From Sphingosinicellaceae bacterium (GTDB lineage: Bacteria > Pseudomonadota > Alphaproteobacteria > Sphingomonadales > Sphingomonadaceae), in contig JAYVLC010000009.1 of the NCBI GenBank assembly GCA_043759675.1, forward strand, positions 1 to 31,328: DNA of 31,328 nt, written 5' to 3'. The translations under genes were made by a program, and so were the position numbers. Numbering within the stretch: the stretch's first letter is position 1; every line of letters starts with the position of its first letter. The notes beneath the pieces were generated by a model, which was not told where the DNA came from, did no database searches, and was given only the letters and a program-made list of their open reading frames with translations. This document shows positions 6,589-22,056 of this stretch, one piece after another.

Positions 6589-6912
6589 ATGTCCGCCTCC
6601 AAGGTCACTGATGCCACATTCCACGCCGACGTGATCAGCGCCGATAAACCAGTATTGGTCGATTTCTGGGCCGAATGGTGCGGTCCGTGCAAGCAGATCG
6701 GTCCGTCGCTGGATGAACTTTCCAGCGAGATGGCCGATCAGGTGACGATCGTGAAATTGAACATCGACGAGAACCCCGATGCGCCGAGCAAATATGGCGT
6801 GCGCGGCATTCCGACGATGATCCTGTTCAAAAATGGTGCCGCCGCCGCCACTGCGGTCGGTGCCCGGCCCAAGGGTGCGATCAAAAGCTGGCTGGAGGGG
6901 GCGCTGGTTTAG
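6589..6912 (+). CDS. trxA: Thioredoxin
   Basis: VDFWAEWCGPCK active site, VRGIPT, 107 aa; follows addA as is usual in Alphaproteobacteria. Confidence 0.97.
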   Translation: MSASKVTDATFHADVISADKPVLVDFWAEWCGPCKQIGPSLDELSSEMADQVTIVKLNIDENPDAPSKYGVRGIPTMILFKNGAAAATAVGARPKGAIKSWLEGALV

Positions 6913-7925
6913 AGCCGGTCGATAGCTGCTTTGGTCAGCGGCGCGGCAGCCAATGCCGCGTCGAGTGCCTCGCGCCATTTTGGCCCCTTGTTTCGGGCTG
7001 TTTCATAGGCGTCGAGGAGTTCGGAGGGGCGATCCTCGGCGAGCGCGTCAATCAGCGCCGCCGCCTGCCCCAGATCTTTGCGCGCCTTCAGCCGGTTCGG
7101 TCCGCGACGGCGCTGCGATACGATCAGCTTGTGAACCGCGTAACGCTCGGGCCGGGGAATCTGCACGAGCGTCCCGGAGCGGTGGATGGCTACAGCGGGG
7201 ATCGGCTCGGCGATCAGGAAGTTCAGGAAGTGCAGGCTTTGCGCCCAGACGCCCAGGCTCTTTAGCTGGCGCGGGCCTTCGTCGTCCTCGAATGAAGGTG
7301 TCAGGAAATCGACCCTCGTCGTGCTGCCGGGCATATGCCAGTGCGCGGTGCGCTGATGTTTGTGGATCGATGGGGTGGGCGTAAGTCTGAGTTCAGCGAA
7401 GCCTTCGGCGAGCGACGGCGAGACGTTGTCATCGAGGACGAGGGTTAGACGCTCGAATGCCGCGATATCGACATCTTCGGTCACTGCGAGCGATTGGCGC
7501 GTGACGCGGAGGCCAAGGACGGAATCGTACATCCGGAAGGCATGGGTACCGACGAGGGTCCCGCCCAGTCGGAAAACGCCGACCTTGGCCATCGCGTCGA
7601 GAATCCGGGCCGTTGTCCGGTCGGGCGCGGGGAGCATCGCGGCCCGTAGCTGCGCGGCGAGTACCCCGCAATGGCGGTCGAAATCGTGCGCGTCCTTCCG
7701 GTCGGCTCGGGCGCGTTCCATGCGTTCGCGCAGGTCGGGAGAATCCGGCCCGATATAGCGTTGCACGGTTCGTTCTCCGATGCGTAACTTGGCGTACCAG
7801 TAGGACCGGTCGCCGCGTTCGATCAGGACCGGCGTACCGTCCAAGGGGTCGGCCGCGCGCATCAGATGCGCGTCGAGCAGGCTCTGATAGGTCGTTTGAA
7901 CCGAAAGAGGCAGCTGTTCTACCAT
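6909..7925 (-). CDS. GSU2403-family nucleotidyltransferase-fold protein
   Basis: LVGTHAF, TEDVDIA (DxD) and YAVHKLIVSQRR...KARKDL.QA pattern. ATG 7925 chosen; in-frame GTGs at 7931 and 7934 are alternatives. The stop overlaps the trxA stop by convergent overlap (4 nt). Confidence 0.75.
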   Translation of the reverse strand: MVEQLPLSVQTTYQSLLDAHLMRAADPLDGTPVLIERGDRSYWYAKLRIGERTVQRYIGPDSPDLRERMERARADRKDAHDFDRHCGVLAAQLRAAMLPAPDRTTARILDAMAKVGVFRLGGTLVGTHAFRMYDSVLGLRVTRQSLAVTEDVDIAAFERLTLVLDDNVSPSLAEGFAELRLTPTPSIHKHQRTAHWHMPGSTTRVDFLTPSFEDDEGPRQLKSLGVWAQSLHFLNFLIAEPIPAVAIHRSGTLVQIPRPERYAVHKLIVSQRRRGPNRLKARKDLGQAAALIDALAEDRPSELLDAYETARNKGPKWREALDAALAAAPLTKAAIDRL

Positions 7926-8036
7926 ATGCACCACAGTTTGGAATTCTGTGGTGCATATACCATGTGCACCACAGATTCAACTTCTGTGGTACATGCGGCA
8001 CCCGGTTACACTACACGAGCAACTTTTGTAGTGTAA
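7924..8036. repeat. Array of three related inverted repeats, consensus TRCACYACAS-N9-YTGTRGTRYA
   Basis: IR1 ATATGCACCACAG (7924-7936) N9 CTGTGGTGCATAT (7946-7958), a perfect 13-bp repeat. IR2 TGCACCACAG (7965-7974) N9 CTGTGGTACA (7984-7993). IR3 TACACTACAC (8007-8016) N9 TTGTAGTGTA (8026-8035), which contains perfect TTACACTACA/TGTAGTGTAA arms. Confidence 0.9.
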
Positions 8037-8037
8037 A

Positions 8038-9282
8038 TCAGGTCCGGTAATCGGCGTTGATCGAGATGTAGCCGTGGGTCAGGTCGCAGGTCCAGACGGT
8101 GGCACGGCCATCGCCGAGGCCGAGCGCGACACCGATGTCGATGTTGCTGCCGCGCAAATGTGCCGCGACCGGTGCTTCGTCATAGCCCTCGACAGCCAGG
8201 CCGTCTTTTGCAACCAGCGTGGTGCCGAAGCGGATCGCCAGCCGGTCGCGGTCGGCGGCTTCACCAGCTTTGCCGACGGCCATGACGACGCGGCCCCAAT
8301 TGGCGTCCTCGCCGGCCATCGCGGTCTTGACGAGCGGGGAGTTGGCGATGCTGAGCGCGATGGTCCGGGCGGCAGAGTCGGTTTCGGCGCCGTTGACGCT
8401 GATGGTGATGAATTTCGACGCGCCTTCACCGTCGCGGACGACCTGTTGCGCGAGCTCGCGGCACAGGTCGGTCAGCGCGGACTGGAAGGCATCGGCCCCG
8501 ACGCTGGACCAGCCCGCCAGCGGCGTGTTGGCAGCGGCACCGGTGGCAAAGGCGAGGACCGTGTCAGATGTTGACGTGTCACCATCGACGGTGATGCAGC
8601 TGAAACTCTGCTGGTTCGCGGCTGACAGCATGGTTTGCAGAAAGGCAGGTTCCACAGCTGCATCGGTGAAGATGAAGCCCAGCATCGTTGCCATGTCCGG
8701 CGCGATCATCCCGGACCCTTTAATGAAACCGACGAGATTGACGGTCATTCCATCCACAACCGCCTGCGTGACGGCGGCCTTGGGAAATGTGTCCGTCGTC
8801 ATGATCGTCGAGGCGGCATCTTCCCAGGTTGCGGTGCTGCCAGCGTTCAGCTTGGCAAAGGCCGAGGCGAGACCGGAGCGGGCCTTGTCGATCGGCAGTG
8901 GCACACCGATCACGCCAGTGGACGCGACAAACACCTGTTCCGCCGCGCAGCCAAGGGCGGCTCCGGCGGCGTCGAGAATGGCCTGAACCGCAGCGACGCC
9001 CTTGCCACCGGTGAAGGCGTTGGAATTACCTGCGTTGACGACCAGCGCCCGGGCCGAGCCGCCACCCAGCGCCCTGCGGCACCAGTCAACCTCGGGCGAG
9101 GGGCATTTGGATTGGGTCAGGACACCAGCCACAGTTGTACCGGGGATGAATTCCGCCAACGTGAGGTCCGTGCGCTCCCAGGCCTTGTAGCCGGCGCGGC
9201 TCACGGCCAGCCGAACCCCTGCGATATCGGGGAGATCGGGAAAGCGCGCTGGCGCCAGCGGGGAGCGGATGATTTCGGCCAT
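8038..9282 (-). CDS. argJ: Bifunctional ornithine acetyltransferase/N-acetylglutamate synthase ArgJ
   Basis: KGSGMIAPDMATML autocleavage motif, VDGDTSTSDT, DGEGASK, EDANWGRV, DLTHGYISINADYRT. Start set at MAEIIRSPLAP (ATG 9282) rather than 9408. Confidence 0.95.
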   Translation of the reverse strand: MAEIIRSPLAPARFPDLPDIAGVRLAVSRAGYKAWERTDLTLAEFIPGTTVAGVLTQSKCPSPEVDWCRRALGGGSARALVVNAGNSNAFTGGKGVAAVQAILDAAGAALGCAAEQVFVASTGVIGVPLPIDKARSGLASAFAKLNAGSTATWEDAASTIMTTDTFPKAAVTQAVVDGMTVNLVGFIKGSGMIAPDMATMLGFIFTDAAVEPAFLQTMLSAANQQSFSCITVDGDTSTSDTVLAFATGAAANTPLAGWSSVGADAFQSALTDLCRELAQQVVRDGEGASKFITISVNGAETDSAARTIALSIANSPLVKTAMAGEDANWGRVVMAVGKAGEAADRDRLAIRFGTTLVAKDGLAVEGYDEAPVAAHLRGSNIDIGVALGLGDGRATVWTCDLTHGYISINADYRT

Positions 9283-9339
9283 CGAAGCGCGATAGCACTG
9301 CCGCGTCGCCCAAGGTAGAGGGTCAATGGGCCACTTCAA

Positions 9340-9368
9340 TTGACTATCGGCCCCCTCGTCCCTAAATC
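9340..9368 (+). promoter_or_regulatory. Putative sigma70 promoter of secA
   Basis: TTGACT (9340-9345), N17, TAAATC (9363-9368); CCTAAATC resembles the Caulobacter-type GCTANAWC -10. Confidence 0.65.
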
Positions 9369-9417
9369 CCCGCGGTTCCTCGCGCGGGCGTTTGGCGCTC
9401 GCATTCAAGGTATTTAC

Positions 9418-12157: not shown

Positions 12158-12201
12158 GTGACACCTGGCCGAATGTTGGCTATATGATGGCCAACATTCG
12201 G
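12158..12201 (+). promoter_or_regulatory. Toxin-antitoxin promoter with palindromic operator
   Basis: GTGACA (12158-12163), N17, TATATG (12181-12186). A perfect 12-bp inverted repeat, CCGAATGTTGGC (12169-12180)/GCCAACATTCGG (12190-12201), flanks the -10. Confidence 0.75.
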
Positions 12202-12209
12202 AGACGGTG

Positions 12210-12470
12210 ATGGCGAGCTATAGCATTGCGGAGGCAAAAAACCGGTTTTCGGCGCTCATTGATGCTGCCGAGCGTGGTGAGGAGGTCGAGATCACCCGCT
12301 ATGGACGGCCGGTCGTCGCAATCGTGCCTAGCGGCCATGCGCACCACCTGCCGCCAAAGACAACGACGTGGGAGTCAATCCAGCGCATCCGTGACAAATT
12401 CGCTGACTGTGGGGTCGCAAACATTAACGGTGTCGCTCTGGTCGAGCAGGGCCGGGAAGAAGACTGGTGA
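12210..12470 (+). CDS. Phd/YefM-family (prevent-host-death) antitoxin
   Basis: MASYSIAEAKNRFSALIDAAERGEEVEITRYGRPV N-terminal signature; GGAG RBS; GTGA overlap with the PIN toxin. Confidence 0.88.
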   Translation: MASYSIAEAKNRFSALIDAAERGEEVEITRYGRPVVAIVPSGHAHHLPPKTTTWESIQRIRDKFADCGVANINGVALVEQGREEDW

Positions 12471-12901
12471 CCTATTTCGACGCAAGCGCCTTTGTGTCGT
12501 TCTTCCTAGGAGATGTGCACAGCGATGGCGTTAGGGCGTTTGTCGAGCGGCAGCCTAGCGTCGTGATCAGCGACCTGACGTTGATCGAATTTGCTTCCGC
12601 CGTGTCCCGGGCCGTCAGAACCCGACGCCTGAGCCCGGCACGGGGTCAGGAGTTGCTGCTCGATGTCGATGTATGGGCGTTGAACGAAGCGATCCGGTTC
12701 GACATCTCGACTGCGGACATTCGCGTTGCCGATAGGCATGTCCGCCAGTTCGACCTCGGCCTGCGGCCACCCGATGCAATCCATATCGCCATATGTCAGA
12801 GGCTTGGCCTCGCGCTGGCGACGTGCGATGACACGCAGGCGAACGCGGCGCGGGTGCTGGGTGTCGGTGTGATCAATCTGTCTGCGGGGGCAATCCCATG
12901 A
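12467..12901 (+). CDS. vapC: VapC-family PIN-domain ribonuclease toxin
   Basis: YFDASA, IEFASA, LRPPDAIHIA and LATCD give the acidic PIN active-site residues; 144 aa, directly after the antitoxin. Confidence 0.88.
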   Translation: MTYFDASAFVSFFLGDVHSDGVRAFVERQPSVVISDLTLIEFASAVSRAVRTRRLSPARGQELLLDVDVWALNEAIRFDISTADIRVADRHVRQFDLGLRPPDAIHIAICQRLGLALATCDDTQANAARVLGVGVINLSAGAIP

Positions 12902-20787: not shown

Positions 20788-21981
20788 ATGGCCAAAGCGA
20801 AATTCGAGCGGAACAAGCCGCACTGCAACATTGGGACCATTGGTCACGTCGACCATGGCAAGACGTCGCTGACAGCAGCGATCACCAAGATCCTGGCCGA
20901 GACCGGCGGTGCCAAGTTCACGGCCTATGCCGACATCGACAAGGCTCCCGAGGAGCGCGAGCGCGGTATCACCATTTCGACGGCGCACGTGGAATATGAG
21001 ACGGCAGCCCGTCACTACGCCCACGTCGATTGCCCCGGCCATGCCGATTATGTGAAGAACATGATCACCGGAGCTGCGCAGATGGACGGCGCGATCCTCG
21101 TCGTTTCGGCGACCGATGGCCCGATGCCGCAGACCCGCGAGCACATCCTGCTCGCCAAGCAGGTCGGCGTTCCGCAGATGGTCGTGTTCATGAACAAGGT
21201 CGATCTGGTCGACGACGCCGAGATTCTCGAGCTCGTTGAGCTGGAGATCCGCGAGTTGCTTTCGAAGTATGACTTTGATGGTGACAATATTCCGATCATC
21301 CAGGGCTCGGCAGTCAAGGCGCTCGATGGCACCAACGATGACATCGGTCGCGAATCGATCATCAAGCTGATGGCAGCTGTCGATAGCTGGATCCCGCAGC
21401 CGGAGCGTCCGCTCGACAAGCCGTTCCTGATGCCGATCGAGGATGTGTTCTCGATCTCGGGTCGCGGTACCGTTGTCACCGGCCGCGTCGAGAGCGGCAT
21501 CGTCAAGGTCGGCGAGGAAGTCGAAATCGTCGGCATCCAGACCGTCGTCCGCAAAACCGTCGTCACCGGCGTCGAAATGTTCCGCAAGCTGCTCGATCAG
21601 GGCCAGGCTGGCGACAACATCGGCGCGCTGGTTCGTGGCGTTGGCCGTGAGGAAGTTGAGCGCGGCCAAGTTCTCTGCAAGCCCGGTTCGATCAAGCCGC
21701 ACACCGACTTCTCGGCAGAAATCTACGTGCTGTCGAAGGACGAGGGTGGCCGTCACACGCCGTTCTTTGCGAACTATCGTCCGCAATTCTATTTCCGCAC
21801 CACCGATGTCACCGGAACCGTCGAGCTGCCAGAGGGCACCGAGATGGTCATGCCGGGCGACAATGTGACGCTGACCGTCAAGCTCATCGCACCAATCGCG
21901 ATGGATCAAGGTCTGCGCTTCGCTATTCGTGAAGGTGGCCGGACCGTTGGCGCCGGCGTCGTCGCGAGCATCAGCAAGTAA
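20788..21981 (+). CDS. tuf: Elongation factor Tu
   Basis: [48 protein letters not shown]. Confidence 0.99.
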
Positions 21982-21989
21982 GTATGTTA

Positions 21990-22031
21990 CGACCGCCCGG
22001 CAGGGTCACCTGCCGGGCGGTCGCGGTTTTT
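21990..22031 (+). terminator. Terminator-like hairpin between tuf and rpsJ
   Basis: Perfect 15-bp stem CGACCGCCCGGCAGG (21990-22004)/CCTGCCGGGCGGTCG (22009-22023), GTCA loop, then CGGTTTTT. Confidence 0.65.
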
Positions 22032-22056
22032 GTGAAACGAATAAAGCGGTATTGAG

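Follow-up and report, generated by a model that had tools for sequence, protein, structure and literature searches.

Tandem palindromes upstream of a MenT1-like nucleotidyltransferase gene as probable operators for the fused N-terminal domain of its own product

In the AbiEi/AbiEii system of Streptococcus agalactiae and the Rv2827c/Rv2826c system of Mycobacterium tuberculosis, expression of a toxin-like enzyme of the nucleotidyltransferase (NTase) fold is controlled by a DNA-binding partner whose own promoter contains the inverted repeats to which it binds. We analyzed a locus with a similar toxin-like enzyme in a 31,328-nt stretch of DNA from a Sphingosinicellaceae bacterium (assembly GCA_043759675.1, contig JAYVLC010000009.1; the whole stretch is referred to as the window), where three inverted repeats (IR1 to IR3) lie directly upstream of a gene encoding an NTase fused to an N-terminal DUF6788-like domain (N-domain). 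AbiEi is a separate protein of two domains, the N-terminal one a winged helix, and its toxin belongs to DUF1814; the putative binder at our locus is instead fused to an enzyme of the PF12281 family, and both its predicted architecture (a helix, a three-stranded sheet, and a long helix) and its site geometry (9-N11-9) are unlike those of AbiEi. The Rv2827c promoter, which belongs to an autoregulated AbiE-type NTase toxin-antitoxin operon, contains multiple repeats of mixed affinity (PMC7319586), an arrangement that may be paralleled here by IR1 and IR2 versus the variant IR3. This comparison is one of analogy, not homology. A model of our full-length protein matched AbiEi at E 0.13, rank 32, in Foldseek, and we rejected membership in the AbiE type because the enzyme is of PF12281 rather than DUF1814, no separate AbiEi (COG5340) partner gene is present, and the defense-system models of PADLOC gave no match. 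NCBIfam models gave none either.

Among solved bacterial toxin folds, those of MenT1/MenA1 (Rv0078A/Rv0078B; 8an4 and 8an5) come nearest to the NTase domain, which shares the G-[ST] and DxD motifs with them. Identity to MenT1 is only ~16% and MenA1 is a separate small antitoxin; the NTase described here is MenT1-like by fold and motifs. CapRel SJ46 is a toxin-antitoxin system fused into a single polypeptide, in which a C-terminal antitoxin domain senses a phage protein; we know of no role for this domain at a DNA operator. Like our protein, it carries a regulatory or neutralizing module and a toxin-like enzyme in one product of a solo gene, but the domains are unrelated. Type III ToxIN-like systems also have tandem repeats just upstream of a toxin gene, with ~36-45-nt direct ToxI repeats that are conserved over their full length and processed by the endoRNase toxin. 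We rejected membership in this class because at our locus only the dyad-symmetric arms are kept, the spacers differ, and the enzyme is an NTase, not an endoRNase. Homologs of our protein bear the PF12281 and PF20586 labels, neither of which has a known function, and the NCBI name "GSU2403 family nucleotidyltransferase fold protein"; a full-text literature search on GSU2403, DUF6788, NTP_transf_8, and PF12281 found no paper on the family.

The features on which our argument rests are as follows.

6909-7925, minus strand: NTase gene, 338 amino acids, ATG at 7925
7626-7925, minus strand: N-terminal DUF6788-like domain, codons 1-100, delimited from AlphaFold2 (AF2) models
6909-7625, minus strand: NTase domain, PF12281 NTP_transf_8, MenT1-like
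7927-7955: IR1, proximal palindrome, TGCACCACAG-N9-CTGTGGTGCA, perfect arms
7965-7993: IR2, middle palindrome, arms as in IR1 with one mismatch
8007-8035: IR3, distal variant palindrome, TACACTACA-N11-TGTAGTGTA, with 10-bp perfect arms at 8006-8036

The palindromes are unique to this locus within the genome, are conserved in position and geometry among homologs, co-diverge with the protein, and follow its N-domain. We assign a probability of roughly 0.7 to the reading that they are operators for a dimer of this N-domain, and that a MenT1-like, fused toxin-antitoxin-type module is thereby subject to negative autoregulation. A preliminary description of this DNA had preferred to read the array as operators of a dimeric repressor, for which it named the NTase itself as a possibility, and the comparative evidence set out below favors the same interpretation.

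The three 29-bp palindromes, with arms of 9-10 bp and AT-rich spacers of 9-11 bp, fill the 112 bp from the argJ stop to the NTase start. The perfect arms of IR1 reach 13 bp (7924-7936/7946-7958), and its right arm takes in the A and T (bases 1 and 2, 7925-7924) of the NTase ATG. The spacer of IR2, AAGTTGAAT on the minus strand, is kept in four of four related loci. IR3 begins one base past the argJ stop TGA (8040-8038) and differs from IR1 and IR2 by a mirrored, paired change at two positions per half-site (TACACTACA/TGTAGTGTA versus TGCACCACA/TGTGGTGCA). Gaps of 9 and 13 nt separate the palindromes, giving direct periods of 38 and 42 nt, and the six half-sites start at approximately -110, -90, -68, -48, -30, and -10 from the ATG; from these positions, the right arm of IR2 and the left arm of IR1 form an everted pair that is also spaced by 9 nt. 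On re-reading, the sequences, gaps, and coordinates given in the preliminary description were all correct, as were the paired compensatory change that it reported in IR3 and its value of 45% GC over 7921-8040 (54/120, versus 0.625 for the window). The 10-9-10 layout that it ascribed to all three palindromes holds for IR1 and, with one mismatch, for IR2; in IR3 this register leaves the innermost pair mismatched, and the arms are perfect as 10-N11-10.

A degenerate motif for these sites matched three times in the window, each time in the array, and was absent from 100 dinucleotide shuffles. Scanning the genome of origin (2.4 Mb in 349 contigs, 92.6% complete), a check suggested earlier, yielded a single extra match, with 2 mismatches, and a reversed-pattern control matched more often than the motif itself. 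Across 400 genomes of the bacterial family, the motif exceeded the control rate only in this genome and in a sister genome, G003, and was otherwise at chance level; the array was therefore rejected as a genome-wide repetitive extragenic palindromic (REP)-like element.

A homology search (E <= 0.001) identified at least 2928 homologs of the NTase. We compared 32 loci (36-100% identity), 27 of them drawn from 400 sampled genomes of the class, with start codons set by alignment and in-frame stops; a palindrome was counted if it showed 9/10 arm pairing and a span of 25-33 bp and lay within 130 nt upstream of the start. The preliminary description had proposed looking for palindromes ahead of homologs, and at least one is present in 28 of the 32 loci and at least two in 19 (one to three per positive locus), a mean of 1.66 per locus. 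Dinucleotide shuffles gave 0.025 per locus, and 133-nt stretches taken elsewhere in these loci gave 0.07. Imperfect palindrome copies are present in the four loci scored as negative, and no matching palindrome was found at the 3' end of the NTase gene. Three sites are limited to the sublineage of the window and a few others. Because the contexts of the homologs differ (argJ, a GST-like gene, a tRNA, L9, a Mur ligase, or a plasmid gene), the palindromes evidently travel with the gene. The family is also carried by 455 plasmid records, including those of Rhizobium, Sinorhizobium, Agrobacterium, and Paracoccus. A solo homolog with 54% identity (PDEN_RS23705), encoded on plasmid 1 of Paracoccus denitrificans PD1222 (NC_008688.1), is preceded by two palindromes of the TACCCCACA/TGCCCCACG type (locus L095, 1360-1446), the proximal of which ends 7 nt before the ATG.

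Within any one locus, the arms are common to all palindromes and the spacers are AT-rich but different, a pattern that indicates sequence-specific recognition of the dyad. Between lineages the arms themselves change, and the half-sites we encountered include TGCACCACA, TACACTACA, TACCCTACA, TACCCCACA, TACCACACA, TGTTCAACA, TGCCCAACG, TGTGCAGCA, GTTATACGCA, and GTTATGCTTA. A homolog with 94% identity, also beside argJ, has the same three palindromes; in one with 83% identity, IR1 is kept, IR2 has doubly compensated arms (TGTGCCACA/TGTGGCACA), and IR3 is half-degenerate; and a third with 62% identity (L038), located beside a tRNA 3' end, carries the IR3-type half-site TTACACTAC at both of its sites. 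The offset from forward to reverse half-site is 19 or 20 bp in every locus, and the unpaired center that remains once the inner positions have paired is 3-17 nt long. The proximal site mostly ends 1-25 nt before the start codon, and the second site lies farther upstream by 38-40 bp (center to center) in the subgroup of the window and by 55-60 bp in the GTTATACGCA subgroup. Half-site distance correlates with protein distance in a Mantel test (N-domain, r = 0.71; NTase domain, r = 0.60); the correlation is significant but confounded by descent, and we do not take it as proof.

We also inspected four short matches to the N-domain profile, and all four have upstream palindromes. One is an orphan 102-amino-acid N-domain protein from marine metagenomes (L069, 1920-2309; L070, 25-415) whose gene has no NTase downstream. 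Upstream of this gene, a pair of perfect palindromes (TTCCACAGCAAAA...TTTTGCTGTGGAA) stops 2 nt short of the ATG. Retention of the palindromes by this orphan gene indicates that the sites follow the N-terminal module. The other three were rejected as genuine two-gene versions, since they are fused genes of metagenomic homologs, interrupted exactly at the linker between the two domains: by an in-frame TAG seen in two samples (L067, 633-650; L068), by a frameshift (L073, ~890-950), and probably by a frameshift (L072, ~1560-1612). These interruptions could be products of decay or of faulty assembly, or they could be steps toward two-gene versions.

In the enzymatic part of the protein, residues 104-310 match PF12281 (E 1.4e-60; 205 bits versus a cut-off of 26.3), and the catalytic G-[ST] and DxD motifs are intact, with G126, T127, D151, and D153 invariant in 37 sequences. 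Foldseek placed 8an4/8an5 (MenT1) at ranks 2-5 (E ~1e-3, probability 1.0, template modeling [TM] score by target 0.53-0.62), behind a fungal NTase-like protein (5uvd, E 6.1e-4), and the domain also resembles TglT/MenT3 and ANT(2''). A sequence search of the Protein Data Bank gave no match. In the AF2 models (predicted local distance difference test score 87-88), the NTase domain is preceded by a helix (residues 7-22), three strands (31-37, 40-49, and 52-60), and a long helix (63-95). The sheet contains invariant Y42-W43-Y44, Y57, and G59, and the region that includes it (residues 30-60) has a net charge of +3. The AlphaFold database (AFDB) holds this N-domain fold in many small stand-alone proteins and NTase fusions, all uncharacterized, and our N-domain profile matches 1100 protein clusters, including a 98-amino-acid protein (P0135) at E 2.6e-26 that has PF20586 on record. 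A local Pfam scan gave no PF20586 match for residues 1-100, nor for P0135, and the precomputed PF20586 matches on close homologs are mostly weak or faint. Because the local scan did not reproduce the label, assignment to DUF6788 rests on the precomputed annotations and the profile link.

The encoded protein itself is indicated as the binder because no conserved neighboring gene able to supply a regulator was found across the family contexts inspected and the motif does not recur elsewhere in the genome. We propose that the module is a self-contained, horizontally mobile single gene in which an N-domain of ~100 amino acids is fused to a MenT1-like NTase. A dimer of the N-domain would read two 9-bp half-sites whose starts are 19-20 bp apart; because this offset is about two helical turns, both half-sites would lie on the same face of the DNA. 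With one dimer per 29-bp palindrome, three dimers could coat the 112-bp region, start codon and any promoter included, and repress the protein's own gene. IR3, whose half-sites each carry two changed positions in mirror image, probably differs in affinity. The N-domain may additionally restrain the enzyme as a cis-antitoxin, and the module could act as a fused toxin-antitoxin or defense unit.

Several observations weigh against this proposal. The co-divergence of sites and protein is expected from plain co-inheritance as well. The N-domain model had no significant match to any solved DNA-binding fold in Foldseek or VIA-align, so structural support for DNA binding was not obtained; the matches were dominated by the long helix, and weak ones include an integrase arm-binding domain (3jtz, E 0.23) and XRCC4/SAS-6-like heads with a coiled coil. 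No sigma-70-like promoter passed our scan of the array, and an overlap between operators and promoter is therefore assumed. Finally, the minus-strand RNA of the array is very stable (z = -6.6), with an IR1 stem that would bury the AUG, and an RNA-level effect through start-codon occlusion may coexist with the operator role. Two candidate promoters can nonetheless be read by eye within the array.

8008-8037, minus strand: candidate promoter A, TTTACA (8037-8032)-N18-TAGTGT (8013-8008), inside IR3; 8 of 12 consensus positions
7952-7980, minus strand: candidate promoter B, TTGAAT (7980-7975, in the IR2 spacer)-N17-TATGCA (7957-7952, at the outer edge of IR1); 7 of 12 consensus positions

Both appear weak and neither is decisive. 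Candidate A had been noted previously as a possible promoter overlapping IR3; its sequence is indeed present, but it falls below the threshold of the promoter scan. Candidate B is kept in the homologs with 94% and 83% identity. Bound protein would cover either one. With regard to translation, a Shine-Dalgarno-like core occurs within the 20 nt before the start in only 4 of the 32 homologs, and its absence from the other 28 suggests leaderless or otherwise non-canonical initiation in the family. Several homologs have a half-site (such as TATAAC or TAnnGT) where the -10 box of a leaderless mRNA would fall, and in L038 and L039 promoter-like half-sites are placed as for such an mRNA.

Among the alternatives, the one that survives best, though we judge it unlikely, is that the palindromes act as RNA. 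Read-through from argJ or a transcript from a promoter in IR3 would then carry three leader hairpins, and the IR1 hairpin would bury the AUG, throttling translation or stabilizing the mRNA. In support of this idea, the minus-strand RNA folds into three hairpins (-70.7 kcal/mol, at the z-score given above) whose IR1 stem takes in bases 1-2 of the AUG, most homologs lack a Shine-Dalgarno-like core, and no terminator was found between argJ and the array in a terminator scan. The array itself was rejected as an intrinsic terminator of argJ, as it has no T-run and the scan found nothing within it. The pattern of substitution does not favor RNA pairing, however. The 27 arm mismatches comprise 10 of the G.U type (on the sense strand), 8 of the A.C type, and 9 others, with no bias toward G.U; all hairpins of a locus share a single stem sequence, which structure alone does not demand; the outer span is fixed while the loop varies from 3 to 17 nt; and Rfam gave no match (best 24 bits, versus gathering thresholds of 41-100). 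The lack of G.U bias, the shared stems, the fixed outer geometry, and the lack of an Rfam match together argue that the sites are constrained primarily by a protein that reads double-stranded DNA, and any hairpin effect could follow secondarily from the symmetry of the operators without being their main function. The same lack of bias, along with the unconserved spacers, disfavors the leader RNA that had been offered in the preliminary description as an alternative.

It is less likely still that the palindromes are operators of another protein, either a host regulator or an unlinked repressor, rather than of the N-domain. Binding by the N-domain is a prediction, and its fold matches no solved DNA binder, both of which leave room for such a protein. 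Yet a regulator acting elsewhere would have to be reconciled with a motif that has no other copy in its own genome, with arms that vary with the cassette and not with a conserved host factor, with the occurrence of the cassette in unrelated hosts and plasmids without a conserved neighbor, and with the retention of sites by the orphan N-domain gene.

The locus is flanked by the following genes.

8038-9408, minus strand: argJ (PF01960), upstream of and co-directional with the NTase gene
6589-6912, plus strand: trxA (thioredoxin), convergent with the NTase gene, stops overlapping

Upstream of trxA are addB and addA, and secA diverges from argJ; among these neighbors (addAB, trxA, argJ, and secA) we found neither a partner gene nor a recombinase or transposase. 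The NTase gene is accessory, and was not found in three genomes of the same genus, two of them 99% complete. The sequencing runs in which the locus was found are all DNA metagenomes. The trxA-argJ interval that holds it (window 6912-8038; relatives L076-L094) is a variable slot in the bacterial family, with differing cargo of 0.8-1.6 kb; family members beyond those described next have 0.8-1.4 kb of other cargo at this position. In the three genomes that we read, the cargo is a pair of molybdopterin oxidase-like and cytochrome c-like genes (G001, assigned by reading the sequence), a GST-like gene (G003), and the NTase cassette of our own genome, which lacks the GST-like gene.

The sister genome G003 is informative in this respect. 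Its GST-like gene adjoins argJ and is followed, between that gene and trxA, by two related palindromes without an NTase (L017, 1331-1397; G003:C8:81830-81896). A metagenomic locus whose NTase is 83% identical to ours (L034) has the same GST-like 3' end, followed by three palindromes and then the NTase. The G003 palindromes, which have 1 and ~3 arm mismatches, align to the distal and middle sites of L034; IR1 and the NTase gene are gone, with the deletion breakpoint just beyond the IR2-equivalent relic. In view of this alignment, we rejected the G003 palindromes as gene-independent sites and consider them a deletion relic of the cassette. Because G003 and L034 align over both the GST-like end and the palindromes, the ancestral order was likely argJ, GST-like gene, IR3-IR2-IR1, NTase, trxA.

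Such a history could be taken to suggest that the gene was brought into the trxA-argJ slot by the palindromes, acting as sites of recombination or mobility (res-, att-, or dif-like sites, or hairpin ends). The accessory status of the gene, the differing cargo of the slot among relatives, the abutment of the array on the argJ stop, and the position of the G003 breakpoint are all compatible with this scenario. We nevertheless consider it very improbable, and the same evidence disfavors the three-subsite recombination site raised earlier: there is no recombinase or transposase among the neighbors, the 3' end of the gene lacks a matching site, the palindromes are fixed in position relative to the start codon and not to the cassette ends in all contexts, and their sequences vary by lineage, unlike att or dif cores. 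Equally remote is a type III-like RNA antitoxin, in which tandem ~38-42-nt repeats would be processed to small RNAs that neutralize the NTase toxin or serve as decoy acceptor stems, since, although a toxin-like gene does have three units repeated in tandem (periods of 38 and 42 nt) directly upstream and MenT-type enzymes act on RNA 3' ends, only the arms are kept between units whereas in type III systems conservation extends across the entire repeat, most homologs have two units (with class II sites 55-60 bp apart and not tandem), no G.U bias is seen, and the toxin-less orphan N-domain gene retains its sites.

Two other elements of the window were observed in passing. A perfect 12-N9-12 palindrome at 12170-12202 (CCGAATGTTGGC...GCCAACATTCGG) lies 5-8 nt ahead of a Phd/YefM-like antitoxin open reading frame (ORF; 12207-12470), which overlaps a PIN/VapC-like ORF (12467-12901) just past secA. 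From our reading of the sequence, the segment from 12170 to 12901 resembles a conventional type II toxin-antitoxin pair that has an operator of its own. At 21990-22032, a GC-rich 15-bp stem with a 4-nt loop and a subsequent T-run form a canonical intrinsic terminator after an ORF ending at 21981.

Returning to the self-operator reading, a self-repressed, toxin-antitoxin-like NTase module would be of a known kind; the putative binder fold, its fusion to the enzyme, and the site rule appear not to have been described. We also entertain a more far-reaching version, which we regard as possible but doubtful. The DUF6788-like domain would represent a previously unrecognized sequence-specific DNA-binding fold, composed of a helix, a YWY sheet, and a long dimerizing helix, with widely diversified half-site specificity. 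Operator binding would repress the gene and at the same time keep the MenT1-like enzyme inactive, resulting in a DNA-tethered, single-polypeptide toxin-antitoxin or defense switch that is translated without a Shine-Dalgarno sequence and is possibly leaderless.

The proposed operator rule (two 9-bp half-sites with a 19-20-bp offset, usually two sites ending no more than ~25 nt from the start, and lineage-specific arms) would provide an experimental handle on a MenT-like enzyme with a putative regulator in the same polypeptide. The family supplies a natural series of protein and site pairs from which it may be learned how an unstudied domain reads DNA, and PDEN_RS23705 of the cultured P. denitrificans PD1222 would be a convenient system for experiments. 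For annotation, the rule would account for AT-rich palindrome arrays beside genes of this kind, and for relic arrays where the gene has been lost.

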